A DNA stretch of 64,000 nucleotides, taken from positions 49,374 through 113,373 of the IMG/VR virus record IMGVR_UViG_3300030102_006903. One strand, 5' to 3'. The notes under the pieces were generated by a model. The model searched no databases. It saw only the letters and a program-made list of their open reading frames with translations, and was not told where the DNA came from. Both the position numbers and the translations under genes were made by a program. The stretch is from a virus. Below, one piece after another: positions 5,767-24,398 of the stretch (position 1 is the first letter of the stretch; each line of letters begins with the position of its first letter).

Positions 5767-5798
5767 CAAATATAGTAAAAATATTTGAATTATCCAAA
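5767..5798 (-). promoter_or_regulatory. Bacteroidota-type -33/-7 promoter
   Basis: TTTG-N20-TATATTTG. Confidence 0.75.
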
Positions 5799-6098
5799 TA
5801 ATTTATCAAAAACTTTTTGAACTATTTCTTTTTCGTTTCCAAATTCTTTATGTACTTCTTTTCCATTTTTGAATGCAACCACCATTGGAATATTAGTTAA
5901 ATCAATCAAACTTCTACTCTGTGGAGATACATCTGGATTTATAAGTATAAAGGGAATATTTTTATGTTCTTTTGAAACTCTTTCATACTCTGGTTTTAAA
6001 ATATCACAATTACCACACCAATCAGTGCCAAACATTACCATTAGTTTAGGTTGTGTTCTCAATAAAACATCGAGTGAATCTGTTTCTAATTTTATCAT
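5790..6098 (-). CDS. thioredoxin-like protein
   Basis: WCGNC motif and cis-Pro IPMV. Start moved to the ATGA overlap at 6098. Confidence 0.85.
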   Translation of the reverse strand: MIKLETDSLDVLLRTQPKLMVMFGTDWCGNCDILKPEYERVSKEHKNIPFILINPDVSPQSRSLIDLTNIPMVVAFKNGKEVHKEFGNEKEIVQKVFDKLFG

Positions 6099-7042: not shown

Positions 7043-7043
7043 A

Positions 7044-7256
7044 TTAAAATGAGGAGTTTTTAACTTCTTTACAGAAGTCTGATAATTTTTCTAATTTAGT
7101 TATGATAGATTGTTTTCTGTTTTCGTCAATTACACCAAGATTTAATTCTGATATAATATCATTTACTGATGATTGTACTATTAACAATCCATCTTCTTTT
7201 GAATTAAGAAAGTTTTCAGATACTCTGAACTTTCTTGCTATTTCTGTTAAATTCAT
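7044..7256 (-). CDS. hypothetical protein
   Basis: 70 aa ORF between a promoter copy and the clamp loader. Confidence 0.7.
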   Translation of the reverse strand: MNLTEIARKFRVSENFLNSKEDGLLIVQSSVNDIISELNLGVIDENRKQSIITKLEKLSDFCKEVKNSSF

Positions 7257-7279
7257 AATTTATATAATTTTAGTTGGTA

Positions 7280-7311
7280 CAAAGATACGAAATTTTTTTT
7301 TAATATCCAAG
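7280..7311 (-). promoter_or_regulatory. Bacteroidota-type -33/-7 promoter
   Basis: CTTG-N20-TATCTTTG upstream of the clamp loader operon. Confidence 0.7.
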
Positions 7312-7839
7312 TAATTTTAATATTTTTTTTACTGATTTTGGTCCTACTTTTATTGTATGATATGGAAATCCATTATCATCTAAAACTTGTTTACACAATT
7401 TATCAATTGCTACTGCTTGTTCGTAATCTTGAAATCTTTCTTTATTATTGTGAACAGTATCACCTCTTTCTAAAAGGATATTAATATTATCATATTGATT
7501 GTGTAAATCAATTACCAAATTGTGAAAAGGTTCTCTGTAAAAACTTGCAGGATAACCTTTTGTGTAATATCTGTGATAAATAGTAGAGAAAAGGATTGGT
7601 GAATCGATGATTATATAATCAACTTTACCATAACATTCTGCAATTCCTCTATGTTGATTTGCAAAAACATATAACTGGTCTGATATTGCTGGTATGTTTT
7701 TATCCCATGCTAATCTTTTTGGAAATTCGTATGGGTTATTACAACTTATATGTTGTTTTTTTAATTTATAAGTAACCCCATTTGCAATTGAGGATTTACC
7801 TATACCTGCTCCACCGAATAAATTAATCAGTTTGCTCAT
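7300..7839 (-). CDS. P-loop nucleotide kinase-like protein (AAA_28/NadR-type)
   Basis: INLFGGAGIGKS Walker A and IIIDSP. Confidence 0.8.
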   Translation of the reverse strand: MSKLINLFGGAGIGKSSIANGVTYKLKKQHISCNNPYEFPKRLAWDKNIPAISDQLYVFANQHRGIAECYGKVDYIIIDSPILFSTIYHRYYTKGYPASFYREPFHNLVIDLHNQYDNINILLERGDTVHNNKERFQDYEQAVAIDKLCKQVLDDNGFPYHTIKVGPKSVKKILKLLGY

Positions 7840-8554
7840 ACTCTCTCCAATATCCTAAATCTTTTTTAAACCATTTTATATTTTTGTAATTGAAATAATT
7901 GAATAAATTTATTTTTAAAAAATTTAAATATCCAAATTTCAAAAATCTTCTATTATCTTGTCCAATATATTCATTGAGTATTTTGAACCTTGATTTTGGT
8001 ACCTCTTTCGATAACCAAAAATCTTCTGAATTTTGTAAAGTTTCATCGAACCCACCGAGTTCATTAAATTTCTTTTTAGAAATTAAAAAGAAACAACCTG
8101 TACAAAATGTGATTGGCATTATATTTCTCATCCAATCTAATATCTTATAAGTCCAAATAGATTTTTTATCATGAGTAGTTAATGATTTTTGTTTTACTGA
8201 AATGATATCGTATCTATTTAAATTTTTATGTGCTTCATTTAAAACATTTCTACCTATAAGAACAGAATCAGCATCCATGAATAAAATGTAATCTGTTGAT
8301 ACAAATGTAGCACCATTATTTCTTGCAAAACCTACTTTACCACCTTGAACCACCTCTATTTGTAGATTAGAGAAATCCTCAGAGGCTTTTGATATATACT
8401 CAAGTGTTTTATCAGTAGAGTTATTATCTGCAATTACAACTCGTAATACACCTTGGAAGTTTTGTCTTGATATTTTCCAAAGAGTATTGTAGATGTAGTT
8501 TTCCTCGTTATAACAAGGAATTATTATTGTTAATAAATCAGTTATTGTTTTCAT
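7823..8554 (-). CDS. GT2-family glycosyltransferase
   Basis: IIIPCYNEE, ADNNSTD, ARNNG, FMDAD, GGFDE...ED. Start set at MKTITD (8554). Confidence 0.9.
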   Translation of the reverse strand: MKTITDLLTIIIPCYNEENYIYNTLWKISRQNFQGVLRVVIADNNSTDKTLEYISKASEDFSNLQIEVVQGGKVGFARNNGATFVSTDYILFMDADSVLIGRNVLNEAHKNLNRYDIISVKQKSLTTHDKKSIWTYKILDWMRNIMPITFCTGCFFLISKKKFNELGGFDETLQNSEDFWLSKEVPKSRFKILNEYIGQDNRRFLKFGYLNFLKINLFNYFNYKNIKWFKKDLGYWREYEQTD

Positions 8555-8556
8555 GT

Positions 8557-8586
8557 GAAAAGAAAGTGGGGGAGTTTCCTCCCCCA
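8557..8586 (-). terminator. intrinsic terminator after the TonB-dependent receptor gene
   Basis: TGGGGGAG-GAAA-CTCCCCCA followed by CTTTCTTTTC on the minus strand. Confidence 0.8.
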
Positions 8587-8605
8587 ATATTTCTTTAGGT
8601 TGTTT

Positions 8606-11314
8606 TTAGAATCTGTATTTGAATGAAGCATTCCATGTACGTCCGAATCCGAACCATACTGAATTTCTTGTATCAATACCATTCCATGTTTCTGAAGCTG
8701 CTCCAGCATGGATGTTTGAGTTAGATTCTGCAATGTAGTAAGTATCAAGTAAGTTGTTGATATTTACTCTGAATGAAGCATCATTTCCGAATAAGTTGAA
8801 TCTAAAGGTTGAACCTAAATCAACTAATCCATAAGATGGTAACTTCAATGCACCCGCATTGTCAGGTGCTGTAAATTCTGAATCAGTAATTGAGTAATCT
8901 GCGTAAAGATTATCTACAAATCTATATCCTAAATCTACATTTAACTTGTTTCCAAGTTTATAATCTGCTTCTAAGTAAGAAACGAATTGAGCTGCATCAC
9001 CAACTTTAGCATCTTTTAAGTACAATGTACCTGTTCCGATTTGTTGGTTTTCATCATCAAATAACGCTGCTTCAAAATCTTTAGTATATCTCCAATCACC
9101 GATTGATAACATACCTTTTAATCTTAGTTTAGAATTATAATCATAAGTTGCCTCAACTTCTATACCGTTGTGAACTACATCGATATCCTTGAATTGTGCG
9201 AATCCATCAACACCTTGTTGGTTTGATAAACTTCTTGTAACAAATCTGTTACCCCATACTGTTGAGTATGCGTTTACATTTGCTCTGAAGTTATTTCCAA
9301 TGAATCCATATCCTAATTCAACCGATTTAATTTCCTCATTTTGTAAATCAGGATTAACAGTATTAGCATAGTTAGGGAATACACCATCAAAGTTTGGTTG
9401 TCTTGAGATGAAACCAGCATTGAAGAATACATTATTCTTTTCATCAATGTTATAGTTTGCACCACCTTTTAGATAACCACCACCAACATTCTTAGTATCA
9501 GATATTGGATTACCTGGTTGTCCAAAGTAATCAATTCTTTGGAAAGATTGATTTGATAAACCAGCTTGTAATACAGCAGATAAAGTAGAGTTGTTATATT
9601 CAACTAAACCATTTAAACCTTGCCAACCAACTTTACCAATATTATAGTAAGCGATTTTAGGGCCTCTGATACCTGTATCTTTGAATGGATTTGCTTCAAC
9701 TAATGTATTAATTATTTGTCCTGCAGAGTTATCATTACCAGTTGAGTAATAACCATCTAATCCCATTAGGTGGTTTAATGCTCTATAATGATATCCTTTG
9801 TAGTTTCTTAAATCAATACCGATTGAAGTTTTCCAATTCCCTTTCTCATATTCTAAGTTAGAGATTGCTCCAACCCAGTCATGAGAGTTCATAGAAGCTC
9901 TTCTAATAAGTGCACTTCTGTTAACACCATCAGCATTGAATCCATTTGAACCAATCAATTGACCTGTAAATGGTAAATCACCACTATATGGGTCTGTGTT
10001 TGCTTGGTTATATGCAACTACTGCATCAAAATCAATAAATCCTTCTGGTGTTCTTGAACCTCTACCATTTTCTAAGTAGTGTTCAGTAAGGTCTTTTCTA
10101 AATGGTAAGATATCAGTTTCCGAGTTGTAATAACTTTTACCTCTTGGACCTGTTCCTCCACCTCTACCAGCTGAACCATATAATGATGTAGCTAATTTAA
10201 GGTTAGAATTAATATCCCAATCCCAATTCAGAGTTGCTAATGGTTTGTTGTAGAAGTTTCTTCTCATTGAGAATTCTTCTCCATTTAAAACACCACCATT
10301 TGTATTCCATCTTCTATCAATTCCTTCTGTACCAAAGTTTTGGTAGTCTCTAATAGAAACCCAAACATCTCTTTGGTGGTGCCATTGACCAGCACCTAAG
10401 AAAGAAAAGTTAACTGAGTGCTTAGAATCTTCAGGTGCATATCCTAATGCAAAGAAGTAAGTATAACCCTCACCACTTGTATTATAGATATATCCATCAC
10501 CTTGCCATCTACTTAATAAGAAAGATGAAGCCCAACCATTGTCATTAAGACCTGTTGAGTGAGAAACAGTAGTTTTGAAATACCCATCATTACCAAATGT
10601 TTGAGCAATTGAACTACCACTTCTTGCTTCAGCTGCCTTAGTAAAGATTGATACAGTTCCACCTACTGATGGTACTGCTAATCTTGAAGCACCTAAACCT
10701 CTCTGTAATTGGATTCCACTTGCAACATCAGTAAGACCTTGCCAGTTAGACCAATAAACCCATCCATTTTCCATATCGTTAACTGGTTGCCCATTGATAA
10801 GGAAAGATGTATTTCTTTGGTCGAATCCTCTTAAAGAGATTCTCGAATCACCATATCCACCACCTTGTTTGGTTGCGTAGACACCTGGTGTTCTGTTCAT
10901 TATCTCAGGAAACTCTTGGTTACCTACTTTGAGTGCGATTTCTGATGGTGAAATAGTTGAAACTGCTACAGGTGTTTCTCTCACCTTTGCAATATCAATT
11001 ACACCAGAACTTACAACAACCTCACCAAGTACATTCAAGTCAGGTGTTAAACCTACTTTCGTGTTACCACTTGATTCAATTACTGTGGTTTCGTACCCTA
11101 AGTAAGAAACAACAAGTGTTGTTCCCTCAGATACATCAAGAATAAATGTCCCATCAAAACCTGATATTGTACCATCTTGAGTTCCCTCAATGATGATAGT
11201 AGCACCTGGTAAAGGGTCATTTGTCTCGACATCATAAACTAATCCACTTATTTGGGAAAAGCTTGCTGTTATACTTCCAAATAGGAATAACAGACTTAAC
11301 ATTAAATTTCTCAT
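8606..11314 (-). CDS. TonB-dependent outer-membrane receptor (Bacteroidota type)
   Basis: Signal peptide followed by Gln; CarboxypepD_reg-like N-terminal extension (PLPGATI...FDGTF...SYLGY); plug (PGVY...ISLRG...LINGQP); barrel ending NINNLLD...GRTWNASFKYRF. Confidence 0.93.
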   Translation of the reverse strand: MRNLMLSLLFLFGSITASFSQISGLVYDVETNDPLPGATIIIEGTQDGTISGFDGTFILDVSEGTTLVVSYLGYETTVIESSGNTKVGLTPDLNVLGEVVVSSGVIDIAKVRETPVAVSTISPSEIALKVGNQEFPEIMNRTPGVYATKQGGGYGDSRISLRGFDQRNTSFLINGQPVNDMENGWVYWSNWQGLTDVASGIQLQRGLGASRLAVPSVGGTVSIFTKAAEARSGSSIAQTFGNDGYFKTTVSHSTGLNDNGWASSFLLSRWQGDGYIYNTSGEGYTYFFALGYAPEDSKHSVNFSFLGAGQWHHQRDVWVSIRDYQNFGTEGIDRRWNTNGGVLNGEEFSMRRNFYNKPLATLNWDWDINSNLKLATSLYGSAGRGGGTGPRGKSYYNSETDILPFRKDLTEHYLENGRGSRTPEGFIDFDAVVAYNQANTDPYSGDLPFTGQLIGSNGFNADGVNRSALIRRASMNSHDWVGAISNLEYEKGNWKTSIGIDLRNYKGYHYRALNHLMGLDGYYSTGNDNSAGQIINTLVEANPFKDTGIRGPKIAYYNIGKVGWQGLNGLVEYNNSTLSAVLQAGLSNQSFQRIDYFGQPGNPISDTKNVGGGYLKGGANYNIDEKNNVFFNAGFISRQPNFDGVFPNYANTVNPDLQNEEIKSVELGYGFIGNNFRANVNAYSTVWGNRFVTRSLSNQQGVDGFAQFKDIDVVHNGIEVEATYDYNSKLRLKGMLSIGDWRYTKDFEAALFDDENQQIGTGTLYLKDAKVGDAAQFVSYLEADYKLGNKLNVDLGYRFVDNLYADYSITDSEFTAPDNAGALKLPSYGLVDLGSTFRFNLFGNDASFRVNINNLLDTYYIAESNSNIHAGAASETWNGIDTRNSVWFGFGRTWNASFKYRF

Positions 11315-11401
11315 AAATTAAATTAATTTAAATTAATAATACTATAACTGATTATAGTAACGCTTGAGATACTTGCATACCTCAATATCTTCAATATTTT
11401 T

Positions 11402-11524
11402 CTAATTGGGTTTTTCATTAAAATCTTGGGAATAAAAAGTAATCCTATCAGCAGTGACTGATGGTTCTTCGAAATACGGACTTTTGAAATAACTTGCAAA
11501 ATTTATAATATAAGTTTCACTCAT
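11402..11524 (-). CDS. small ORF (40 aa) upstream of the TonB receptor; the frame continues 19 codons past its TAG
   Basis: MSETYIINFASYFKSPYFEEPSVTADRITFYSQDFNEKPN*, with a late-like motif TACTTATA just upstream. Confidence 0.35.
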   Translation of the reverse strand: MSETYIINFASYFKSPYFEEPSVTADRITFYSQDFNEKPN

Positions 11525-11538
11525 CTTTGTATAAGTAT

Positions 11539-13173
11539 TTAAGGTTTATAAAAAACGAAGATTGGTTCAAATTTATACACTTTCCCGTCATGTTTGACCG
11601 AGTTCTTTATACCACTTTTAGATGGGTCTAACCCAACCATCCTTGTCATCAACATTTTTAACTTACCTTTATATTCACATCCTAACTCATTTAAGATATC
11701 AATTGAATCTTGTTCAAGTGGATAATAGATTGATTTACCTATCTTGATATCAGCAATATTCCATAAAATATACCTATCATTCTTTAGATACTCATAAATC
11801 GTTGTTAGAGTAGGTTTTAAGAAGTTATCTCTCCAATCTTCATATTCACCATATGCTTTAAAAGATTGGTTCTCATCTTGAGAGTATTGTTCTCTGTTAA
11901 AATATGGAGGTGAAGTAAATGCAATATCTAACTTACCTTTATATTTTTGAAATTTTGGATTATTTGAGATTACCTCAGAACCATCTTGAAATAATTCGTA
12001 AGTGTTTCCTTGTTTTTCAACATTAAAAAATGATGTAAGTTTATCTGAGAAATCATCTACACAATTATCATTATAAAACTTAGCAACATATTCGTAACGA
12101 GAAATACCTAATTCATCTAAGAAGTTATCTGGATTAGGGTCTGTACCAACATAGTGAACTTTCTTACGAGAACTCATCGCACCGATGATTCTACCACCCC
12201 AACCACTTGATGAATCGTAAATATGTAATGGTTCATCTGTATCGATGTGGTTAGTATAATTTTCGTAAATCCACTTTGCAGTTAGTGCAGGAAAGTTTAC
12301 TGCAGGTTGTCCACAACTCAATCTAAATACTTGTAATATCTTTGGGAAGATACCAACTGTCTTATCATACCATCTTATTAGGTATTTGTATTTAGTGACT
12401 GTTCCTGCCTCTGAAGTTGTTGAATCAACTATTTCACCAAGATTTGATGTTTGAGTACTATTAAGATAACCAGTCGCAAGTAAACCATTTACTTCTTCTG
12501 AATTTAAATATAAGTTACCAAATCCAACATATTGTTCATTGAATGTTCCATAGTTTTTAAGAGTAGATTCTTTTACTCTCGCTAAAACAATTCCTAAATC
12601 AGAATATTTTCCTTTAAACACTTTACCATCATGAACATCTTTTATAAACTGAACCCCATCTTGTCCATTCCAAAAAGGATTCTCATCTTTTTTATCTACA
12701 AGTGAACGAGACCAAGAATACATAGAATCTCTTTTAACTGCTCGTTTCATAATATTAACGAACTTATCTTCCATACTTGTATCGGAAAAATGGTCATAAA
12801 TAGATAAACCATTATCAGCAGATTTACCAACTGATATTTTTGTTTTTAACATTGTAGGAAAAAACTGATTTACAACTGATGCATCTTTATTAAAGTTTTG
12901 TATTACTCCTAAAGATTCTTCATCACCACTTGTATCTTTTTTCCAATACTTTGCTGGATTAGATTTAAGTTTCTTGAATGATTTTATAATACCCTTTTCA
13001 TTCTTACCAATAACTGGTGGAGTTCCTCTATCATCCCATTGTTCAGTAACCTCCTTACGAAGCAAACGAGCCCATTGAACGAACTCATCATCAGTCATTT
13101 CTAACAACTGATGATAAGTCGTATTGGATTTAAACTCAGAAAATCTGCTTTTTTCGTAAAAGTGTTTACTCAT
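11539..13173 (-). CDS. DNA amino-methyltransferase-like protein (N6-A/N4-C fold)
   Basis: YDSSSGWGGR SAM-binding motif and FTSPPYF catalytic motif. Confidence 0.85.
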   Translation of the reverse strand: MSKHFYEKSRFSEFKSNTTYHQLLEMTDDEFVQWARLLRKEVTEQWDDRGTPPVIGKNEKGIIKSFKKLKSNPAKYWKKDTSGDEESLGVIQNFNKDASVVNQFFPTMLKTKISVGKSADNGLSIYDHFSDTSMEDKFVNIMKRAVKRDSMYSWSRSLVDKKDENPFWNGQDGVQFIKDVHDGKVFKGKYSDLGIVLARVKESTLKNYGTFNEQYVGFGNLYLNSEEVNGLLATGYLNSTQTSNLGEIVDSTTSEAGTVTKYKYLIRWYDKTVGIFPKILQVFRLSCGQPAVNFPALTAKWIYENYTNHIDTDEPLHIYDSSSGWGGRIIGAMSSRKKVHYVGTDPNPDNFLDELGISRYEYVAKFYNDNCVDDFSDKLTSFFNVEKQGNTYELFQDGSEVISNNPKFQKYKGKLDIAFTSPPYFNREQYSQDENQSFKAYGEYEDWRDNFLKPTLTTIYEYLKNDRYILWNIADIKIGKSIYYPLEQDSIDILNELGCEYKGKLKMLMTRMVGLDPSKSGIKNSVKHDGKVYKFEPIFVFYKP

Positions 13174-13892
13174 TATGATTGTATCTCCACTAAATAATAA
13201 TTTGATTCATAGTTATCTACTTCGAATGAAATATGTGCTAATCCTTGAGATGAAATCTTAAGAGTAGCATCTGTTGCTTCTTTATTTGCAACTAGGATTT
13301 CTTTTAAGAAGTTTGCTGAGAATGAGATTGGTTCTACTTTATCTTTTGAACAAGTACAATCAACATCAATGTTAATTCTATTTGTATTGATATTAGAATA
13401 TCCTAAGATAATTTGACCGTTTTCACCATCTTTACAAGTAAATGTAAAGTTATTCTCATCTGCTAAAGCACCTTTTGCTTTGATGAATTTTGAAATAAAG
13501 TTTGAATCTAATTTAATTTCTGAATCAAACTCTGGTAATTGTTTTAAATCAGGTACATTAGGGATAACTGATAAATCAGCTAACATATAGTTTACTGATG
13601 TAGAACCATCTTTGAATTTCAAAGAAACTGCTTTACCATCAATATCGTTGATTGAGAAATCAACATCATTTCCTAATACTGATAACATTTTTGTAAGTTT
13701 TGAAGTATCATATACACCAAAGGTTGCATCTGATGAATCAAACTCTTTCATAGTAACACTACCCAAAACAGATTTATCATCTGAAATGAACGATGTTGTT
13801 AGAGAACCTTCTTTAGATTCCCACTTTACAGATTCTACTAAACCTGCAAGATTGTACTTCGATACGAAGCGATTTAATGATTGTTTTTCCAT
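13173..13892 (-). CDS. sliding clamp (T4 gp45-like)
   Basis: 239 aa PCNA-like pattern (FGVYD..KL...L; LKISSQGLAHISF); adjacent to PolB. Confidence 0.8.
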   Translation of the reverse strand: MEKQSLNRFVSKYNLAGLVESVKWESKEGSLTTSFISDDKSVLGSVTMKEFDSSDATFGVYDTSKLTKMLSVLGNDVDFSINDIDGKAVSLKFKDGSTSVNYMLADLSVIPNVPDLKQLPEFDSEIKLDSNFISKFIKAKGALADENNFTFTCKDGENGQIILGYSNINTNRINIDVDCTCSKDKVEPISFSANFLKEILVANKEATDATLKISSQGLAHISFEVDNYESNYYLVEIQS

Positions 13893-13954: not shown

Positions 13955-16471
13955 TTAAAATGTAAAAAATTTCTCTGCTGTTCTTTGTTCACTTACAACA
14001 TCACCCCAACCAATTGCATCATAAAAATCTTGAAGTTTACCTTTTAACTCTCTTTCAAAAATTTTATTGTGGTCAATGTAAGTGTTAATGAATTCATTTA
14101 TTTCTGATGGGTCTTTATAACCTGTAAATGCCAAACCACTTAATCCAAGTGGATTATCTTTTAAATAAACCCATTTTACCTTATCACCATTTTTCATAGG
14201 TTCATATTTGAATGGTGCATCAAAATGTTTCAAACAATCGTTATATGCGATTGCAGCTTTTACATGAGCGGGTGTTCCTTTCATAAATTGAAACAAATTT
14301 CTTTTTCCTTTTGGTAAATACTTTTTAAGATTTTTAACTGCTGAATTCTTTGCAATTACTTTCATATCTTGATTTACCATAGATTTTTTAAAATCTAATA
14401 CTTTATCTGATATTTCTTCTTCTGTTTGTCCTCGTAGAATTGATATAAGAACATCTGCCATGATTTCTTGAAATGCTTTTGGGAATGAACTTCTTTTAAC
14501 ATCCAAACCTTTTACATCTAATTTATCAACAGGTACTCCATTATCTGAAATAATCCATTGAGCATATCTTTTCTTGGCAATCCACAATCCAGCCTTTGCA
14601 ACATATTCCTTTTTGATTTCTAATCTATGTTTATCCTTATCAACATTAAAAATTCTTTTGGAAAGTATATTATAGAAATCATTAAGATAATCTTGCATCT
14701 CTTCTGCTATAACATTAACATACCCAGCGATAGTATCTTGTTCTTCATCTTTCCAATTAGGATATCTTTTATCCATCAGAGGAACTGCAGAAAAGAAAAC
14801 TGAATCAGTATCAATATAAATGTTTGAATCAGCATCTGGTGTATTTAATTCTTTGTTGTACTTAATATTCCCCATATCCGCAGTGGATTTAATCACAGTT
14901 TGACCTGTGGTTGTAACTGCCTCAGCATTATCAACATCATAAAATCTAAATGCAGGTAAACCTAATACACCATACAATGAGTTTAATAAAATCTTTTGAA
15001 CCAATTGTCTTTTATGATAAAACGCATATTTTTCTTTGTTACCTGCTTTACCATATTTTTTCATTGCATTTTTAAAATCTACTCTTTGATTAAACCAAAG
15101 GTTAAGAATATCTGGTATACAACCAACTTTATCAGTTCTATACAATACACCATTTGATGATACTGAAAAATTAGATTGTTCTAAATATTTTTTTAGATTA
15201 TCTCGTGAGATTGTATCTTCACCGATAAAGTAAGTATCTACCTCACCTTTAAGAAATTTATTTGCATCCCAATCTCTAATTTTACCAATCTTTGATTCTG
15301 GTGAAATATTCAAAGTCATAATGATTGATGGATATAGAGAGGTTAAATCCAAATCATATACCCAATCGTATTTACCAACTATTGGTGATTTAACATATGC
15401 ACCAATAAACTTCTCTTCATTGTTATCTCTAATTGCCTGCATCTTTTCCTGTCTATCTGCAGGTTTGTTTGGTGCAACTAAGTTTTTTCTTCTAAGGAAT
15501 GAAAGTAATGCACCTTCAAGATATTTTGATGAATAAACAAAATCTTCATAAGGAACATGTCCTGCATGAGTAATACCTCTACATAAATCAATAAACTGAA
15601 GTTTCTTATCAAATTCAACTACCAACTCAACATCTACTAAGTTATACTCAATAAACTTTTCAATATCTTCTTTAAATAATTGGTCAAGATTTCCTTGATA
15701 TTCAATCTTACCTCTACCTAATTCAATTTGTCCAATGGTATCTAATCGATAATTTGGTAGTTCATTGTAATTAAATTTTTTGTATAATGTTATGTAATCT
15801 AAATAAGATACACCTGCCATGAAATATCTTTTACGATATGGTGAATAGAAACATTGTCCAATTGGTGATAATCTATTCGCTTGTCTCTGTCCCAATAATC
15901 TTTTGATTCTATTGTATAACATTGGTGTATCGAAATAATCAATATTCCAACCTGTAACGATAGATGGATTAATGTATTCATATAATTCCAAATATTTCAT
16001 CAACATATCTCTTTCATCTGCAAAAGGGATTACAATACATTTATCAGTAGTTTTTTCTTCAAGAATACCTTCGTTATCCATAACCAATACCCAATATTGA
16101 TTTGTAGCGGAATCATGTAGTGCAATAGAAGTAATAGCATTCTTTGCTTCTTGTGGGTCTGGTGTTCCACTTTCCATTTCACACTCAATATCGTAAGTAA
16201 GAATAACATGACCAGTTGATGGTTCATCTGAATCTGAGTATAAATCTACTAATGCTCTTGTAGTTTCTGGTACATCTGATTCAAATAAGTTTGCATCATC
16301 TTTACTGAATTTATAAATTTTTGTTAATTTATCTCCATAAATAGAAGTATATTCACCTCTTTTAGCAGGTTCATATGCATATCTAGTATAAGGAAAAGAA
16401 CGATATCCTTGTTTATCATCCCAAAGATGAATTAGATTTTTTTCACGCTGATAATAAATGTTTTGATACAT
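13955..16471 (-). CDS. family B DNA polymerase (T4 gp43-like)
   Basis: Exonuclease motifs YDIE, GWNIDYFD, YNLVD; polymerase motifs DLTSLYPS, KILLNSLYG, YIDTDS, KKRY. Confidence 0.97.
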   Translation of the reverse strand: MYQNIYYQREKNLIHLWDDKQGYRSFPYTRYAYEPAKRGEYTSIYGDKLTKIYKFSKDDANLFESDVPETTRALVDLYSDSDEPSTGHVILTYDIECEMESGTPDPQEAKNAITSIALHDSATNQYWVLVMDNEGILEEKTTDKCIVIPFADERDMLMKYLELYEYINPSIVTGWNIDYFDTPMLYNRIKRLLGQRQANRLSPIGQCFYSPYRKRYFMAGVSYLDYITLYKKFNYNELPNYRLDTIGQIELGRGKIEYQGNLDQLFKEDIEKFIEYNLVDVELVVEFDKKLQFIDLCRGITHAGHVPYEDFVYSSKYLEGALLSFLRRKNLVAPNKPADRQEKMQAIRDNNEEKFIGAYVKSPIVGKYDWVYDLDLTSLYPSIIMTLNISPESKIGKIRDWDANKFLKGEVDTYFIGEDTISRDNLKKYLEQSNFSVSSNGVLYRTDKVGCIPDILNLWFNQRVDFKNAMKKYGKAGNKEKYAFYHKRQLVQKILLNSLYGVLGLPAFRFYDVDNAEAVTTTGQTVIKSTADMGNIKYNKELNTPDADSNIYIDTDSVFFSAVPLMDKRYPNWKDEEQDTIAGYVNVIAEEMQDYLNDFYNILSKRIFNVDKDKHRLEIKKEYVAKAGLWIAKKRYAQWIISDNGVPVDKLDVKGLDVKRSSFPKAFQEIMADVLISILRGQTEEEISDKVLDFKKSMVNQDMKVIAKNSAVKNLKKYLPKGKRNLFQFMKGTPAHVKAAIAYNDCLKHFDAPFKYEPMKNGDKVKWVYLKDNPLGLSGLAFTGYKDPSEINEFINTYIDHNKIFERELKGKLQDFYDAIGWGDVVSEQRTAEKFFTF

Positions 16472-16476: not shown

Positions 16477-16508
16477 CAAATATACGAATTATTTTTCAAA
16501 TATCCAAA
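16477..16508 (-). promoter_or_regulatory. Bacteroidota-type -33/-7 promoter
   Basis: TTTG-N20-TATATTTG ending 5 nt before the PolB ATG. Confidence 0.8.
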
Positions 16509-17739
16509 TAGGTTCACAAAAAGTTTTATCTTGATTCTCTTCTGTATTCTTAAGAGTTTCTTCTTTGTATTGATTTTGGTTATGTTCGGTTTGTTTAACA
16601 GTTCCTGCTCCTCCACTATTAGGTCTTTTAGCAAGTTCCATACCTATACAACCTTTATATGTTAATCCTTTTGATTCTAAGAATTCACACATCGGTTGTG
16701 TAATTTCTTTCCAATCTTTTCCACCTCCACCTTTTTCTGAAGTGTAAACATCTGCAATATTAATTGCCATCTTACCACCTTTTTTCATAGTTGGTATAAT
16801 TTTTTCTAATGCTTTATGAAGAAAATATTCATTCCATGCTTGAATAGATTGATATCTAATCCAACTTTGAGTTTCATCATCTCCATATCTTTCTACATTA
16901 AAGTAAGGTGGTGAAGTGAAAACCAAATCAAAATAATCATGATATTCTGAATAATCAAAATCTTCTGCAGGTGATTGATGTAAATCTACCTTTGTTGGGT
17001 TCTCAAAGAAAGAAGTATGTTTTTGATAAAATTCAGCTTGTTGTTTGTATATTGGATGATTTTCTTTTCTTGGGTCGATTCCAACATAATGATTTACTGT
17101 TGAACTAGCACAGGCACCAGATAAACGGTCTCCCCAGCCAGCAGAAAAATCTAACATTTTTTCACTTCCAAAATATTCTGTTAAACATTTAGTGACATTT
17201 GGTTTATGTTGAGATGCTATATATTTACGAAGTGAAATCATTAACCTTAATTCCTTCTTTCCAATTTTATCTAATTTTAAACTATATGCTGCACCCATCA
17301 AAGTAACCATAAATGCTCTTGTTCTCCATGTCCTTGCTGGACCTGGATATCCACTTGAACAGATTGACCATCTGTTTTTTTCTTGCCACCAATTACTAGA
17401 GAGGTTACCTACATTATATCTTTTAAAGAAAAGAGGTTTACCTTCATATGTCAAAGAATATTTAGATTCTCGTGATTGTCTTTGAAACCATTCTTTTCCT
17501 TCAATTAATAATTCATTCCAGCGTATTCCTTTTAATTTAAAGTAATCATCTCTACAATTTTTTTCTGAATATTTTTCTGTCTGATATGGTAGAGGATATG
17601 TCATACACAAATCTGCAAGTTTTTCTTTAACCTCATCCTTCGTGTACATATCTTTTATATTTTGCCACTCTTCCTCATTTATCTCTAAATAAGGTTTCAT
17701 ATCATAAAATTTTTCAAAGTAATCTTCTCCGCCGTGCAT
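16489..17739 (-). CDS. DNA amino-methyltransferase-like protein (paralogue of 11539-13173)
   Basis: LDFSAGWGDR and FTSPPYF motifs; C-terminal EPIWIF. Confidence 0.85.
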   Translation of the reverse strand: MHGGEDYFEKFYDMKPYLEINEEEWQNIKDMYTKDEVKEKLADLCMTYPLPYQTEKYSEKNCRDDYFKLKGIRWNELLIEGKEWFQRQSRESKYSLTYEGKPLFFKRYNVGNLSSNWWQEKNRWSICSSGYPGPARTWRTRAFMVTLMGAAYSLKLDKIGKKELRLMISLRKYIASQHKPNVTKCLTEYFGSEKMLDFSAGWGDRLSGACASSTVNHYVGIDPRKENHPIYKQQAEFYQKHTSFFENPTKVDLHQSPAEDFDYSEYHDYFDLVFTSPPYFNVERYGDDETQSWIRYQSIQAWNEYFLHKALEKIIPTMKKGGKMAINIADVYTSEKGGGGKDWKEITQPMCEFLESKGLTYKGCIGMELAKRPNSGGAGTVKQTEHNQNQYKEETLKNTEENQDKTFCEPIWIFEK

Positions 17740-18584
17740 TATTTTAAGTTTAATGATTTTCTATATGAACCACCAATATTCCAAAATAGAATCTTACCAT
17801 CTAAGTTCTGAATATTATTTTCTAACCACCACCACATTTTTCTTTCCCAAAACTCATTCATATCAAATGGATATTCGGTAACACCATCCATAAAATCATC
17901 GAATGCGTATTCTGATTTATAAATGTTAATATTATTTAAATCACCTGCCTTATTTTGATTTAAAATCTTTTTAGTAGATTCTATTGCTGACATTGTTACT
18001 GTGTGTACTTTTCTTCTATTGTTAAGTAAATCTTTCCAATCTTTATATTGAAGAAATTCTCTAATCAAACCAGATGCTGTTACACCACTTCCAATCGATA
18101 CAACGAGATGGTCAAAATCTTGTTCTTCCAAAACTTCTTTCATTCTATCTTGCATGTAAGAAACATACGAAGGATGATTGAAAGCATACGGTAATTGTTG
18201 CCAACCTTCCTTTTTTGCGATACCACCAAGTTTATTCTCAAGTAATTTCATCATATTTGGTTTCAATGGATTTAGTGTTGCACCATTTCCTTTAATGATT
18301 TCTAATATTTCTGGTGGATATGATTTTGAATTAGGGTAAGATGATATAAACTCAATACCATATTCCTTACACATCTTTGACAATGTCCAACCAGTCCAAC
18401 TTCCATATACTGAAAGATGGGTTAGTGGTTTTGATTTATCAATGTAATCAGATTCTATAATCTTTCTAATACCTTCAATCTTAGCCCATCGTGGATAGTT
18501 TACACCATCCCCAACTAAATCATCTCTTTTGACATGAACTACTTTACCTTTTAATTTATATTCTTCGATTGGTGTTTGTATCAT
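17739..18584 (-). CDS. PLP-dependent fold-type II enzyme (ACC deaminase / D-cysteine desulfhydrase-like)
   Basis: TPI...VKRDDL...K, the VSIGSGVTASG phosphate loop, and ILFWNIG. Confidence 0.8.
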   Translation of the reverse strand: MIQTPIEEYKLKGKVVHVKRDDLVGDGVNYPRWAKIEGIRKIIESDYIDKSKPLTHLSVYGSWTGWTLSKMCKEYGIEFISSYPNSKSYPPEILEIIKGNGATLNPLKPNMMKLLENKLGGIAKKEGWQQLPYAFNHPSYVSYMQDRMKEVLEEQDFDHLVVSIGSGVTASGLIREFLQYKDWKDLLNNRRKVHTVTMSAIESTKKILNQNKAGDLNNINIYKSEYAFDDFMDGVTEYPFDMNEFWERKMWWWLENNIQNLDGKILFWNIGGSYRKSLNLK

Positions 18585-20086
18585 ATAAATTTGTATATTC
18601 CAACATTGTTATTCTTAACTCTTTCTCTTAATTTCTTATGTGAAAATCCATGTATCTTTTCAAAGTTATCACAAATAACATGAAACAATTTTTTTCTGTT
18701 TTTAAAGTTTATATTTGAATCTTCTAAAATAATAGTTTCTATGTACTCTTTAAAATTTGTACCTTTTTGAAAAGCCCTTTTTTCTTGGTCTAATATTTCA
18801 TCAGGTAATTTACCTCTAAATGCATCTGCAAGTGGTCTTTTCCATTGTCCTTTATCTGATAAAAATTCATCTTGTAAATTTGTTGTATAATTTAAAAACT
18901 CTGTATCAAAGAATGGACATCTAAGTTCGATAGTTCCATAATTCATAAAAATTGTATTACCTCTTAACAAATTACCATAATGTTGTTTCTCAAATAAATT
19001 CTTTCTAACATCACTCCAATCTGGCTTTTTACTAAACATTCTAAATGTACCATATGAACCATACGATTCATCAGAACCCTCACCACTAAATGCAACTTTG
19101 ATTCCATCCTTTACCATCTCTTCTGCAATAAACGATTGTAATATACCAACTTCCATTTGAACTGTTGATGGGTATTCTATTACACTTATAGAATCAATGA
19201 ATCTTTGTTTGATTATCTTTTCATCTCTTGGTACAAATACCTCAATAAGTTCAACTCCAATTGAATCTGCACAAACTCTTGCTTTTTGTAAATCTTTTGA
19301 ATCTTGGTCAAAAGCAATTGTATATGCTTTGATATCTGGTATTCTTTGTGCAAGTAAATATGTAATGATTGCTGAATCTATTCCACCACTTAATGAAGTT
19401 GCAATAGGTACATCAGATAATAATCTTTTATCAACTGCATTTTCTAATAGTTTAAATGTAGTTTTACCAACCTCTTCATGTGATTTTGGTTTAGTTACCT
19501 CATCTGAAAATTGGAAATAAAAGTTTTCGTGTATTTTAAAATCATCTGTATCTAAATCGATTTCTATAAGAGTATTTTTAGGTACAATTTGAATATCATT
19601 TATTCCTTCTTGAGTTAAAATTGATTTTATCTCAGATGCAATGATATATTGATTGGTATTATGGATGTAGAGGGGTATTTTACCCACCCAGTCACGAGAT
19701 AATATGATTTTGTTCGTATCATATATAACAAAAGAAAACATCCCATCTAACCTCTCTAATTCGTTTTCTTTGTAAAGATATAAAATTATCTCTGAATCTG
19801 AATTAGATTTGAATTTATATCCTCTCTGTTCGTATTCTTTACGCAATTGTGGATAATTCCAAATCTCACCATTTACAATTAAATGAGTATCTTCAAATTC
19901 CATCGGTTGATTACCTAATGGAGATATATCATTTATTGATAAACGATTATGACCAAGATGAATTGTTTTATCTTTGTATAAAAATTCTTTTATACCACGA
20001 TTATCTTTTCCACGATGAGAAATCTCTTCTAACATCGTATCTACATCACTATGTTTATAACCAATCGTTGCTACGATTCCACACAT
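18581..20086 (-). CDS. asnB: asparagine synthetase B-like glutamine amidotransferase
   Basis: N-terminal MCGI (Ntn Cys), HRG.D, HNRLSI, NGEIWN, SGGIDS PP-loop, SGEGSDE, ELRCPF.D. Confidence 0.92.
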   Translation of the reverse strand: MCGIVATIGYKHSDVDTMLEEISHRGKDNRGIKEFLYKDKTIHLGHNRLSINDISPLGNQPMEFEDTHLIVNGEIWNYPQLRKEYEQRGYKFKSNSDSEIILYLYKENELERLDGMFSFVIYDTNKIILSRDWVGKIPLYIHNTNQYIIASEIKSILTQEGINDIQIVPKNTLIEIDLDTDDFKIHENFYFQFSDEVTKPKSHEEVGKTTFKLLENAVDKRLLSDVPIATSLSGGIDSAIITYLLAQRIPDIKAYTIAFDQDSKDLQKARVCADSIGVELIEVFVPRDEKIIKQRFIDSISVIEYPSTVQMEVGILQSFIAEEMVKDGIKVAFSGEGSDESYGSYGTFRMFSKKPDWSDVRKNLFEKQHYGNLLRGNTIFMNYGTIELRCPFFDTEFLNYTTNLQDEFLSDKGQWKRPLADAFRGKLPDEILDQEKRAFQKGTNFKEYIETIILEDSNINFKNRKKLFHVICDNFEKIHGFSHKKLRERVKNNNVGIYKFI

Positions 20087-20087: not shown

Positions 20088-20786
20088 CTATCTGTTTAAT
20101 ACTTCTAATAACTTTATTGTTTTCTTTTTTTCATTATCCATATCACCGATATGACATGAACATGCAAGTGTAGTTACTTTTTCTAATTCTAATCCACTTT
20201 GTTCAGCAAGGAAATGTCCCATCTCTGTTAACGCTGTATAATCTGCGTAACCACTTTTAGATACTCTATTTGAACGAAGAATTGATGTAAGGTATAGTTT
20301 ACCATTTCTTGGTTTTAAATCAATCATACACATACAAGGTTGTGAATAAGGATTCCTTGCATCTTTAGTGGGGTCAAAGATAATTAGTTCACATCTTTTT
20401 ACTGCTTTTCCACTACTTAAAATTTTAATTACATTCTCAACCTGATTGAATTCACCTTTCCAAGATACCATTCTACCCCAATAAGATTGATGATAATGTT
20501 CTTTTATAAATTTATAATCCAAACCTTGTTCTGTTTCAAAAAATGGATTATCAGATTTCTTTTCTTCTGGTTTTAAAAATGTAACTGTCTTTGCAAAATC
20601 AATTCTATCATCACCCATTACCTCTCTAAAATATCCATCGAACCAATCATCTGATTTAAATTCTGTAATTTCAGTTACAACATTTAATTCTTCTGTAAGA
20701 TTTCCCACTCTCACACCATTTTCCAATAAATGTTTTGATACTTTCACCCATGCATCGCCAGGAGAAGTTGCTTCAATAATAGTCAT
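20088..20786 (-). CDS. thymidylate-synthase-fold enzyme, dCMP-type (dCMP hydroxymethylase-like)
   Basis: Catalytic QPC, then RNGKLYLTSILRSNRVSKSGYADY and SCHI. Asp sits at the position equivalent to E. coli ThyA N177. Confidence 0.8.
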   Translation of the reverse strand: MTIIEATSPGDAWVKVSKHLLENGVRVGNLTEELNVVTEITEFKSDDWFDGYFREVMGDDRIDFAKTVTFLKPEEKKSDNPFFETEQGLDYKFIKEHYHQSYWGRMVSWKGEFNQVENVIKILSSGKAVKRCELIIFDPTKDARNPYSQPCMCMIDLKPRNGKLYLTSILRSNRVSKSGYADYTALTEMGHFLAEQSGLELEKVTTLACSCHIGDMDNEKKKTIKLLEVLNR

Positions 20787-21498: not shown

Positions 21499-23280
21499 TT
21501 AACCATCACACGCAACACAATCTGGGTCTACTGCTCTAGTTGCAATATCTCCTCTAAGAACTGATTCAGTTCTCATATAATATAGAGTTTTAATTCCTTG
21601 TTTCCAAGCCTCTAATGTAACTTGATTTATCCACTTCGGTGTTGCAATCGAAGGGAAAGCTAAATTTAATGAAACTCCTTGGTCAATATACTGTTGTCTA
21701 ACACCAGCCTGTTTTACCAAGTCCATTTGATTAATTTCTTTGAATGTTCTAAAAACATCTTTTACAGGATAAACTTTTTCTCTTTCTCCATTAGTAATTT
21801 CTTCACAAAGTACCATTTTACCTTCTAAGTAACACCACTTATCAAGTTCTTTGATATCTTGTACTGAACCACCATCTTCCAAAATTTTATCCCAAGTTTC
21901 TTTATTATTAACACCTGCTTTTCTTAATACCTTTACTAACTCACCATTTTTTCTGATGAATGTACCTTTTGAAGTTTGTTCAGTAAATACATTCGCTGCC
22001 CATGGTTCGATACCAGCAGATACATTTCCAGCTAATTTAGAATTACTTACTGTTGGAGCAACTGCTCTTAAGTGAGTATTTCTAAATCCACTTTCTCTAC
22101 ACCATAGAGGTTCACCCATTTCAGATGCCATATCTCTTGATGCTCTTTCTGATTCTATCTTTAACTGAGAAAAAATCTTACGAGTTTCAAATTGTGCCTC
22201 CATACCTTCAAATGGAATACCATTTTGTTGTAGGTAAGTGTGCCATCCTAAAACTCCTAATCCTAATGCTCTACCTTTTTCAGCAGATGCAACAGAGTTT
22301 TCAAATCCTCTCATGTTTTTTGCTTTTTGAATAAACTCTGAAAGAACACCATCTAAAAACCAAGTTGCTGTATAAACTAAATCAGTATCTCTCCACTCAT
22401 TGTATTTAGCAAGATTTACTGATGATAAACAACAAACAAAGGAATGGTTTTCATCTGTGTGTAAAGTAATTTCAGAACATATGTTTGTCATATGTACTTT
22501 CAATCCATTTTTTTTGTACATCTCAGGATTAGATTTATTAATATTTCCTTTGTACATGATGTATGGTTCACCAGTTGCTTTTCTTTTTTGTAGTAATTTT
22601 CCCCACCTTCTTCGTGCATCAGGTTCTCCTTGTTCAAGTTTTCTCATAAACTTATCACCTACAACTGCACATTGGTGTAGATTAAGTGATTGTCTATTTA
22701 CATCTCCTTTAGGTTCTCTGATTTCTAACCAATCTTCAAAATCTTCATGTTCGATATTAAGGTTAACAGATGCTGCTCCTCTTCTTACTGAACCTTGGTT
22801 TGTAGCAAGGATTGTAGAATCATATATTTTACAGAATGGTACAACACCATCAGATGTTCCATTACCTGTAATGGTAGCACCAGCAGGTCTTATTTGGTTT
22901 ACACCAATACCAACTCCACCACCATGTTTAGCAAGTAACATTAGTTCTAAGTTTTTAGAACCAATATCGTATATTGAATCGGCAACATCAATACCAAAAC
23001 AAGATATAGGTAATCCTCTATCAGTGCCAGTATTTGAAAGAACTGGTGTTGCTAAGTTTAACCAACCTTTCCATATATAATCAAAAAACTTAGTTGCCAG
23101 TTGAGGTTTGTTTAATCTTTGAGCAACTCTTGTTGCAACTCTCCAATAAGCATCTTTTGGTTTTTCACCTGGTAATAGGTATCCTTTAGATATTGTTTTT
23201 ACATAAATTTCTGTATTTCCCCAAGAAGGAAAATCAACATCGATTTCCCAACCTAATTCTTCGCCGTAGTTTTTTGCCAT
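21499..23280 (-). CDS. nrdA: ribonucleotide reductase class I alpha subunit (short form, no ATP cone)
   Basis: ATPVLSN, PISCF, TNICSEI, VCCLSS, APTVS, KTLYY, and C-terminal CVAC. Confidence 0.95.
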   Translation of the reverse strand: MAKNYGEELGWEIDVDFPSWGNTEIYVKTISKGYLLPGEKPKDAYWRVATRVAQRLNKPQLATKFFDYIWKGWLNLATPVLSNTGTDRGLPISCFGIDVADSIYDIGSKNLELMLLAKHGGGVGIGVNQIRPAGATITGNGTSDGVVPFCKIYDSTILATNQGSVRRGAASVNLNIEHEDFEDWLEIREPKGDVNRQSLNLHQCAVVGDKFMRKLEQGEPDARRRWGKLLQKRKATGEPYIMYKGNINKSNPEMYKKNGLKVHMTNICSEITLHTDENHSFVCCLSSVNLAKYNEWRDTDLVYTATWFLDGVLSEFIQKAKNMRGFENSVASAEKGRALGLGVLGWHTYLQQNGIPFEGMEAQFETRKIFSQLKIESERASRDMASEMGEPLWCRESGFRNTHLRAVAPTVSNSKLAGNVSAGIEPWAANVFTEQTSKGTFIRKNGELVKVLRKAGVNNKETWDKILEDGGSVQDIKELDKWCYLEGKMVLCEEITNGEREKVYPVKDVFRTFKEINQMDLVKQAGVRQQYIDQGVSLNLAFPSIATPKWINQVTLEAWKQGIKTLYYMRTESVLRGDIATRAVDPDCVACDG

Positions 23281-24398
23281 TATATTAAATTTTTTACTAA
23301 ATCGTTATTTTTTACAAGTATCAATATTTGATATTTTTCATTTTTTGTAACACTTTTATAAGTTACATGCTGGTATGGTTTATAAATTAAACATTCACCA
23401 ACTTTTGGTTTTATTAATGAAAATGTATTTCTATCGTTTTTATACCATTCATCATAAACCTCAACCTCACCACCTTCATAATCATCATTCAAAGTTATAT
23501 CATAGGTAGTAACATATTGTTTTTTATCATCAAAAGGCATATCTTTGATTGTTTCTACATGTCTATCGTATTTATTGCCTTCTTCATATTTTACAAAAAC
23601 ACAATCTACCTTATTCATATCAATTGGTTTAAATTTTGAAAATAAAGTATTATTGATAATTTTTTCAAATTCTTTATTATACTTTAGTTTTCTTCTAAAC
23701 CACTTTCTTTTATGTAGTATTCCTTCAACTTCTTTTTCTACATCCTCAAAAGACAAATTATCTTTGTTTTCTGAAATTAATTTACTACATAATTCTGTTG
23801 TTAAAATATTTTTAGAATCGTAAAACTTATCTTTTCTAAATTCCCCACCTACAAAATATGTCCAGCATATTGTATGGTAAGGTTTTAACAATAGTTCGTA
23901 ACCTTCTTGTTGTAGACCCATTGCTTTTGAATTTAGTAAATCTAAACTTTTAAGTTCAGCATATTCATAAATCGATAAACAACAATTTTCATTTGAGATT
24001 AATTTTGCATAATCTTCAAACTTTGAATAATTTTTATCCTCATAGGTATCCATAAAGATACCATCAAATTTTTTACTAAGAGTTGGAATTACATCTATCC
24101 AATCTCCGAAGATAATTTCTACATTATCTTTATCTTTTGCCCACTCAATTGCTGTATCATAAATTTGTTTATTGATTTCGATACAAGTGTAACTCTTAAC
24201 ACCCATAGAGTAAAATCTATTAGCAGAGTAACCTAAACCAAAACCAATATCTAAAATATGACCACCACCTTTTCCAACTACATTACAAAACTCTTCTGTA
24301 AGTGGTTTTGCTATTTTATCCATAACGATACCTTTATTTTTGATACCATCAGAATAAAATATTCTATCCTTTGTTATCGTAACCTTTTTATTTTTCAA
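23280..24398 (-). CDS. fusion of a class I SAM methyltransferase (GAMT/Rmt2-like) and a 2OG-Fe(II) oxygenase-like domain
   Basis: ILDIGFGLG, IEIN, GDW, FDGIFMDTY; then Y..G..Y.RHVE...LNDDYEGGE. TTG start. Confidence 0.75.
   Translation of the reverse strand: MKNKKVTITKDRIFYSDGIKNKGIVMDKIAKPLTEEFCNVVGKGGGHILDIGFGLGYSANRFYSMGVKSYTCIEINKQIYDTAIEWAKDKDNVEIIFGDWIDVIPTLSKKFDGIFMDTYEDKNYSKFEDYAKLISNENCCLSIYEYAELKSLDLLNSKAMGLQQEGYELLLKPYHTICWTYFVGGEFRKDKFYDSKNILTTELCSKLISENKDNLSFEDVEKEVEGILHKRKWFRRKLKYNKEFEKIINNTLFSKFKPIDMNKVDCVFVKYEEGNKYDRHVETIKDMPFDDKKQYVTTYDITLNDDYEGGEVEVYDEWYKNDRNTFSLIKPKVGECLIYKPYQHVTYKSVTKNEKYQILILVKNNDLVKNLI

Follow-up and report, generated by a model that had tools for sequence, protein, structure and literature searches.

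A thymidylate synthase-like gene in a marine T4-like phage

The window analysed here is a stretch of 64,000 nucleotides from IMG/VR virus record IMGVR_UViG_3300030102_006903 (positions 49,374 to 113,373). It forms the final 64 kb of a 113-kb linear viral contig, rated ~59% complete by CheckV. The G+C content is ~30%, the minus strand holds nearly all genes and gene content is T4-like. The source is an uncultured marine T4-like phage. We focused on an intact, uninterrupted open reading frame encoding a protein of the thymidylate synthase (TS) fold. Three genes follow on the same strand. These encode an AsnB-type glutamine amidotransferase, a fold-type II pyridoxal phosphate (PLP) enzyme and an S-adenosylmethionine (SAM)-dependent methyltransferase-like protein (Table 1). 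The AsnB-type gene starts 1 nucleotide past the TS-like stop codon. The AsnB-type and PLP genes overlap by 4 nucleotides, and the PLP and methyltransferase-like genes by 1. The TS-like gene is translationally coupled to its three partners. The module is placed between nrdA, encoding ribonucleotide reductase, and the DNA polymerase gene. In T4 and RB69, gene 42 and the base-modification genes are found at the same place.

Table 1. Features of the TS-like locus. Positions are those of the window; residues after the equals sign are those of E. coli ThyA.
Feature	Position	Strand	Remarks
TS-fold enzyme, putative cytosine type, folate Asp replaced by Arg174	20088..20786	-	232 aa; alignments, AlphaFold (AF2) model, structure matches
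Motif S148-Q-P-C151-M with catalytic Cys	20331..20345	-	C151 = C146; Ser at L143 position, Met at H147 position
Motif R171-S-N-R174-V-S-K177-S-G-Y-A-D182-Y	20238..20276	-	= 166-178; R174 = D169, K177 = L172, D182 = N177
AsnB-type glutamine amidotransferase	18581..20086	-	501 aa; Cys2, SGGIDS PP-loop, GEGSDE
Fold-type II PLP enzyme	17739..18584	-	281 aa; end-to-end homologue of phage M6 gp52
SAM-dependent exocyclic-amine methyltransferase-like protein	16489..17739	-	416 aa; DFSAGWGDR, TSPPYF; extra N-terminal domain
Second methyltransferase-like paralogue	11539..13173	-	544 aa; no Pfam match
Family B polymerase	13955-16471		53% identity to Microcystis phage Mel-JY01, ~30% to cyanophage and pelagiphage gp43

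The TS nucleophile is kept and the folate aspartate is replaced

The match to Pfam PF00303 (25.9 bits, cut-off 24.3) is marginal on its own. Among curated families, the methanogen-type short TS (NCBIfam TIGR03283) scored best, with 74.5 bits against a cut-off of 174.55. An AF2 model built from 100 sequences had a mean predicted local distance difference test (pLDDT) score of 94.1. This model was compared with known structures using VIA-align. The top match was AfhB of phage HY126 (9iqu; Z 20.7, root mean square deviation 2.5, 193 aligned residues). MilA (5b6e) gave Z 20.5 and L. casei TS gave Z 18.6. At the level of the predicted structure, the TS fold is confirmed far beyond chance.

Residues were assigned using three independent alignments. 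These were HMMER against MilA and AfhB, MAFFT with E. coli ThyA, T4 gp42 and RB69 gp48, and profile-profile comparison with hhalign (probability 98.9%, E 2e-17). One ungapped register is common to all three. In addition to the pairs in Table 1, R171/S172 = R166/S167, H212 = H207, G214 = Y209 and K130/R131 = R126/R127. An earlier note on this DNA had aligned the frame with E. coli ThyA and T4 gp42. It placed Asp at the N177 position and Arg at the folate-contacting Asp of the RSxD motif, with the catalytic Pro-Cys kept. The fetched reference sequences match that alignment (ThyA 166-177, RSCDVFLGLPFN; T4 gp42 168-179, RSNDVVFGFRND). The translation of window positions 20238-20276(-) is RSNRVSKSGYADY. 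Multiple alignment left both assignments in place. At the aligned site RB69 gp48 reads RSQNCAVVMQLD, with RSQN there.

The nucleophile and phosphate clamp are retained (C151, R171, S172, K130/R131 and H212), and Asp182 is aligned with D179 of T4 gp42 and the Asp of MilA. By alignment, cytosine specificity is therefore well grounded in the Asp at the N177 position. Contacts to the folate and the sugar are altered: L172 is changed to Lys, F176 to Ala and Y209 to Gly. The R21 loop is deleted and the E58 position is occupied by acidic D59. The Y94 equivalent is Y102 or W103, two alignments being one residue apart there. No Trp is aligned with W80 or W83, in a region (73-100) of lower model confidence. 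The C-terminal lid of ~50 residues is absent, and so is an acidic residue at the L143 position (Ser148). In mutagenesis work, changes at the TS folate Asp cripple folate-dependent steps. Methylene-tetrahydrofolate is probably not used, because loss or change affects this Asp, the residues of the p-aminobenzoate (PABA) pocket, the Trp pair and the C-terminal lid alike.

Asp-less proteins form a virus-only clade

Our search for relatives covered 1.84 billion representatives. The combination of a non-Asp residue at position 169 with Asp at 177 was found in about a dozen 50%-identity clusters, eight with Arg and four with Ala. Comparison clusters keeping D169 comprised 37 Asp/Asn and 29 Asp/Asp representatives (positions 169/177). 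Close to the window protein, 119 of the 120 nearest 90%-identity cluster representatives carry Arg and Asp at these positions. The nearest cluster has 334 member sequences, with Tara among the sources listed.

The Asp-less proteins form one small, virus-only clade that is monophyletic (Shimodaira-Hasegawa-like approximate likelihood ratio test 96-100). It is nested inside a radiation of short TS proteins retaining D169. Within the clade, position 169 is Arg or Ala by branch, and Asp in no member. At least two Arg/Ala switches are needed on the tree, where the Ala lineages branch at the unresolved base of the clade. K177 does not vary, and R54, R61 and R105 are also conserved. Outgroup proteins that keep D169 can also be basic at the K177 position. 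Neighbouring clades contain hydroxymethylase-looking enzymes with D169 and Asp177.

Published D169N enzymes mark a folate-to-flavin switch, and Asn at 169 is diagnostic of flavin-dependent synthases of 5-hydroxy-deoxycytidine monophosphate (5-hydroxy-dCMP; PMC13326640). In our trees, RB69 gp48 groups with T4 gp42, outside the short-TS radiation holding the Asp-less clade (95* branch). Since the clade stands apart from this branch, its loss of Asp would be independent of the D169N event. The topology is provisional, because these are quick trees with long outgroup branches.

Linkage to an amidating partner follows the clade rather than the arginine

We compared 77 IMG/VR loci with TS identity down to 45%. 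Genes for the TS-like protein, an Asn-synthetase-like protein, a PLP or radical SAM enzyme and a methyltransferase are linked in these loci. In almost all loci with enough flank, the Asn-synthetase-like gene directly follows the TS-like gene. It encodes either a full AsnB or a ~300-aa protein with the synthetase domain only. L004 and L047, both very close relatives, and the distant branch L071-L077 have the short form. The PLP gene is next in most loci; a few loci have a B12-class radical SAM gene in its place or in addition. Each module has at least one methyltransferase-like paralogue. The module was seen in viral contigs only, and phage metagenomes from marine and freshwater sites contain it in abundance.

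The earlier note proposed that Arg174 accommodates an anionic or carboxylated co-substrate, providing a carboxylate for the neighbouring AsnB to amidate. A co-occurrence of Arg with AsnB proved not to be specific. Arg-type enzymes adjoin full AsnB, the 300-aa synthetase-domain-only form, or a radical SAM gene with no Asn-synthetase gene detected (L053). Ala-type enzymes adjoin full AsnB (L050, L057, L061) or the short form (L071-L077). Since both types have an Asn-synthetase-like neighbour, Arg is not the AsnB-coupled feature. Furthermore, Arg174 would be dispensable for the clade, because Ala replaces it in working-looking modules. This counts against the proposed role for Arg. The amidation part of the proposal fared better, as an Asn-synthetase-like gene follows the TS-like gene in nearly every locus; no carboxylated donor was identified.

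We conclude that the amidating partner goes with the entire clade, and so with loss of the Asp and folate site. The dismantled folate pocket tolerates either Arg or Ala at the Arg174 position. Together with invariant K177, Arg174 may contribute positive charge or help to bind an anionic partner. The control for this comparison, D169-keepers without AsnB neighbours, consists of two cultured phages only. In these relatives (n=2), D169 is kept or the motif is lacking, and a glucosyltransferase or aGPT-Pplase gene lies alongside, with no AsnB. A pattern search of viral contigs for the D169-keeping outgroup gave one weak locus.

Several loci have unusual arrangements. Six methyltransferase-like paralogues surround the TS-like gene in L072 (IMGVR_UViG_3300033182_000980, 901-13587), and other Ala-type loci have three to five. 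P0130 is a natural fusion of a TS-like protein with a B12-class radical SAM domain (676 aa). In L049 (4486-6891), a radical SAM domain is fused to an N6/N4 methyltransferase-like domain (801 aa). The open frame at L061:9233-10687 has upstream GIY-YIG and NUMOD3 homing-endonuclease domains as well as the TS-like domain. It is probably a homing endonuclease gene inserted directly ahead of the TS gene. We rejected an apparent TS-AsnB fusion (L045:10001-12133, a 710-aa frame) as evidence for channelling. Here, a deletion has taken out the final TS helix together with the first 14 residues of AsnB, catalytic Cys2 among them. The joined frame represents a copy in decay or else an artefact of assembly.

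Relatives encode a separate ThyA

Canonical ThyA (300-316 bits) is encoded elsewhere in each of four complete relatives of 221-289 kb. One of these has a TS-like protein 92% identical to that of the window. In a 93%-complete relative (169 kb), a ThyA fragment is broken by a stop codon. ThyX was found neither in the four complete relatives nor in the 93%-complete one. The window's own contig fragment has the TS-like copy only. Because the complete relatives encode canonical ThyA separately, the TS-like enzyme would not be needed to make deoxythymidine monophosphate (dTMP). The earlier note held that the enzyme acts on dCMP. Its interpretation is partly supported, in that Asp is at the N177 position, the folate Asp is absent and the enzyme is a paralogue dispensable for dTMP; the substrate itself is predicted from alignment.

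We also looked for components of known pathways. CmoA was absent from the complete relatives. No homologues of M6 gp51 or gp54, a 5-hydroxymethyldeoxyuridine (5-hmdU) DNA kinase and an amino-acid:DNA transferase, were detected in these genomes by single-sequence search, for which there was no positive control. Since known routes that attach a carboxylate or amino acid to a base are not evident in the complete relatives, the TS-like enzyme is left as the likely installer. MazG, dUTPase and dCMP deaminase each occur in some relatives only. Two complete relatives have a MazG-like or a dUTPase-family gene at a distance of 5-8 kb from the TS-like gene (G003:C1:198026-198202 and G005:C1:98422-98808). 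Both kinds of gene are absent from the closest complete relative.

Partner enzymes

The AsnB-type protein has an N-terminal Cys nucleophile (in MCGI) and SGGIDS and SGEGSDE motifs. It scores 288 bits with TIGR01536, against a cut-off of 267. Identity is 31% to gp124 of phage TurkishDelight, which has a CmoY-type context, and 29% to E. coli AsnB. Gene linkage and the precedent of CmoY (PMC12783734) suggest that this enzyme may act on a carboxylate borne by a base.

The PLP enzyme is 27% identical to M6 gp52 over 278/281 residues (E 2e-21). The Lys of its RWAKIEG motif is aligned with that of SFSKIRG, which is gp52 K36. Among cultured phages, matches were restricted to M6/Yua-like and related siphoviruses. 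M6 gp52 and ViI gp226 decarboxylate amino acids already installed on thymine in DNA (PMC8989533). A side chain bearing an amino acid or a carboxylate could also come from the PLP enzyme.

The model of the 416-aa methyltransferase-like protein has a pLDDT of 91. It matches Trm11, TrmN/Trm14, METTL5 and HemK2 with Z ~15, and the best match is not clear. These belong to the (D/N/S)PPY class of exocyclic-amine methyltransferases. In the protein atlas, the 416-aa protein neighbours virus-only clusters of N6/N4 DNA methylases. An orthologue of the second, 544-aa paralogue lies directly upstream of the TS-like gene in another phage lineage (L052-L070), as the methyltransferase partner. The orthologue is 73% identical, while the TS-like proteins are only ~48% identical. 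This contrast suggests strong constraint on, or separate transfer of, the 544-aa gene. The presence of multiple methyltransferase-like paralogues suggests sequence-specific action on DNA.

Other genes of the window

T4-like genes elsewhere in the window encode a sliding clamp, class I ribonucleotide reductase, thioredoxin, a DnaB-like helicase, a 5'-3' exonuclease and RecA/UvsX. Between nrdA and nrdB, a 372-aa gene (23280-24398, minus strand) encodes a class I SAM methyltransferase domain (Methyltransf_25) fused to a 2-oxoglutarate-Fe(II) oxygenase domain. This fusion is restricted to close relatives and hence falls outside the conserved module. A promoter scan gave no more matches than shuffled sequence.

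Comparison with known modification systems

The flavin-dependent 5-hydroxy-dCMP synthases are AfhB of phage HY126 (PDB 9iqu/9iqc), RB69 gp48 and DLP3 gp80. Like these, the TS-like protein has a short TS fold without the folate lid and a catalytic Cys, with Asp in place of N177 and a residue other than Asp at 169. It is also encoded beside DNA polymerase in T4-like phages. Unlike them, it has Arg or Ala rather than Asn at 169, the L143 position is not acidic and the lineage is separate. Furthermore, its linked genes encode an amidotransferase, a PLP enzyme and methyltransferases, and are not sugar-nucleotide and glycosyltransferase genes.

The hydroxymethylases of dCMP and cytidine monophosphate (CMP) share the TS fold, Cys nucleophile, RSx motif and Asp at the N177 position with the TS-like protein. 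These include T4 gp42, MilA (5b6d/5b6e) and the TS of Enterococcus phage VPE25. The place in the genome near polymerase and the role as a first base-modification step are also alike. However, these enzymes keep D169 (RSND, RAND) and use methylene-tetrahydrofolate (for MilA, according to PMC13326640). In T4 gp42 and the VPE25 TS, the L143 position is acidic, whereas the TS-like protein has Ser148. In the nearest cultured-phage relatives, hydroxymethylase-type TS genes lie beside glucosyltransferase or aGPT-Pplase genes, that is, genes that start hypermodification. The VPE25 TS gene adjoins a beta-glucosyltransferase gene. Methanogen-type short TS proteins (TIGR03283) are the nearest sequence family, with the same short architecture, and the clade is nested in their radiation. 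Unlike the TS-like protein, they retain D169; where residue 177 is Asn, it marks them as dUMP-type.

Two recently solved hypermodification systems share parts with the module. CmoA, CmoX and CmoY of Synechococcus phage S-B43 make 5-carboxymethylcytosine and its amide, with CmoY amidating 5-carboxymethylcytosine in DNA (PMC12783734). In that system too, a C5 cytosine modifier is paired with an asparagine-synthetase homologue. CmoX differs in having a C5-methyltransferase fold and acting on DNA with carboxy-SAM. Here, the fold is that of TS, CmoA is missing from complete relatives and a PLP enzyme is added. Yang et al. predicted that a glutaminase-bearing, glutamine-dependent ligase class makes the primary amide (PMC12783734). 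Streptomyces phage TurkishDelight (L082; NC_073473, 5137-9155) has, in a row, two ParB-like genes, a C5-cytosine methyltransferase, a glutamine-dependent AsnB-like gene and a CmoA-like gene. The AsnB-like gp124 lies between the C5-methyltransferase and the CmoA-like gene (gp123-125). This row fits the predicted glutamine-dependent branch of the carboxymethylcytosine pathway. Methyltransferases of TurkishDelight were considered as relatives of the window's methyltransferase-like protein and rejected as unrelated.

The second system is the thymidine pathway of Pseudomonas phage M6 and Salmonella phage ViI (PMC8989533). The module shares with it the gp52-homologous PLP enzyme. As in M6, some variants have a radical SAM gene beside the PLP gene, and the module has a TS-family gene and ribonucleotide reductase as neighbours. 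Unlike in M6 and ViI, the base is of the predicted cytosine type, an amidotransferase is added, and 5-hmdU kinase and amino-acid:DNA transferase homologues were not detected in the search described above. We also rejected the radical SAM proteins of variant modules as relatives of M6 gp53. They are B12-class and have no detectable similarity to it.

Interpretation

On balance, we favour the view that the TS-like enzyme is the first enzyme of a cytosine hypermodification pathway. It would couple C5 to a non-folate partner, after which the side chain would be amidated and trimmed. Briefly, Cys151 would add at C6 of a cytosine nucleotide, most likely dCMP, making C5 nucleophilic. A covalent Cys-C6 adduct would form, as in other TS-fold proteins, and C5 would then be coupled to the non-folate partner. 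In the four-gene virus-only module, the TS-like enzyme would thus act first. The AsnB-type enzyme would amidate a carboxylate on the new side chain, with ATP and glutamine-derived ammonia. The gp52-like PLP enzyme would work on an alpha-amino-acid part of the side chain. Lastly, the methyltransferase-like proteins would N-methylate an exocyclic amine or the amide, probably on DNA and in a sequence-specific manner. A more specific form of this proposal is possible but doubtful. Here, the clade would represent a third TS-fold cofactor regime, beside folate and flavin. The C5 of dCMP would be joined directly to a carboxyl- or amino-acid-bearing electrophile, and the side chain then amidated, PLP-trimmed and N-methylated.

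The fold, residue assignments, conservation, gene linkage and separate ThyA are observed; substrate, cofactor, loss of folate use, order of steps and product are predictions. Some observations weigh against a hypermodification role led by the TS-like enzyme. Loss of the Tyr that contacts the 3'-OH, and of the R21 loop, leaves room for a substrate other than free dCMP. We could construct no single linear pathway giving both the amidotransferase and the gp52-like decarboxylase a carboxylate. The AsnB-type protein could be an ordinary Asn synthetase, because it scores above the asparagine synthase cut-off and is no closer to the CmoY-context protein than to E. coli AsnB. Finally, there is no consistent dCTPase among relatives, and none in the closest complete relative. 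Hence, T4-style total replacement of deoxycytidine is not supported.

Four rival explanations were weighed. In the first, a narrower form of the favoured view, Arg174 would bind the carboxylate of an anionic or carboxylated one- or two-carbon donor, such as carboxy-SAM, glyoxylate or CO2, so that carboxyl-bearing dCMP is made directly and amidated by AsnB. In the S-B43 system, CmoX holds the carboxymethyl group by an Arg and CmoY, an Asn-synthetase homologue, amidates (PMC12783734). The adjacent Asn-synthetase-like gene in almost all loci, the Arg of all 119 close relatives and the gain of basic residues in the pocket (K177, R54, R61, R105) point the same way. We nevertheless think this explanation unlikely. 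Branches with full AsnB have Ala, with at least two switches between the residues, and outgroup D169-keepers share the basic residue at the K177 position. Complete relatives are without CmoA, and the conserved gp52-like PLP enzyme is left with no role. Alternatively, the protein could be a variant flavin-dependent 5-hydroxy-dCMP synthase like AfhB and RB69 gp48, with the 5-hydroxyl group as a handle for the methyltransferase-like, amidotransferase and PLP enzymes. A positive charge close to a flavin makes chemical sense. AfhB is the best structural match, and the lidless short architecture, Asp at the N177 position and non-Asp at 169 are similar (cf. PMC13326640). However, residue 169 is Arg or Ala instead of the diagnostic Asn, and the L143 position lacks its acidic residue. 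The clade is phylogenetically apart from gp48, the AfhB Z score is tied with that of MilA and there is no linked glycosyltransferase. Adjacency of AsnB would also go unexplained without an extra carboxyalkyl transfer. A flavin-dependent synthase is therefore rather improbable.

The enzyme could still depend on folate or another pterin, as a dCMP hydroxymethylase or methylase that tolerates loss of D169. The closest sequence family is the methanogen-type short TS, neighbouring clades with D169 and Asp177 look like hydroxymethylases, and water could enter past the small polar residue at the L143 position. Set against this, D169 is nearly invariant in all other branches (the 37 and 29 representatives above), and the PABA-pocket residues and C-terminal lid are also gone. 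We regard pterin dependence as quite improbable. Least probable of all is a role outside DNA. The module would then supply metabolic auxiliaries (a real asparagine synthetase and an amino-acid PLP enzyme) or make a small-molecule nucleoside product, with the TS-like protein working on CMP or some other ligand. MilA matches the structure equally well and serves antibiotic biosynthesis on CMP; the AsnB-type protein is over the asparagine synthase cut-off and no dCTPase is linked. Conversely, the module occurs in viral contigs only, at the T4/RB69 gene 42 modification-gene position, and is accompanied by multiple DNA-methyltransferase-like paralogues. Moreover, the cultured-phage matches of the PLP enzyme are M6-type siphoviruses, and M6 gp52 acts on DNA bases (PMC8989533). 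We consider a non-DNA role very improbable.

In the literature searched, we found no description of the residue state (Arg or Ala at 169), the gene combination or the candidate products. The mapping of Arg and Ala on the tree, the link to Asn-synthetase irrespective of Arg, an origin independent of the D169N enzymes and rejection of the L045 fusion are new here. The TS-like protein is a putative phage TS-fold pyrimidine C5 modifier whose chemistry is possibly new. In the TS superfamily, residue 169 was recently shown to mark the change of cofactor, with Asp for folate and Asn for flavin. Since the clade lost Asp independently at this position, with Arg or Ala becoming fixed, other new chemistry at pyrimidine C5 may naturally be sought in it. 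The module joins parts of the two recently solved hypermodification systems in an arrangement that is likewise without description in that literature. If the proposal of a third cofactor regime is true, the phage would make an amide- and/or amine-bearing cytosine derivative never described in DNA, without the kinase and transferase steps of the thymidine pathways. Once identified, the product would be a new natural DNA base. It could explain possible resistance of the phage to host nucleases, and the module could supply enzymes for DNA labelling.

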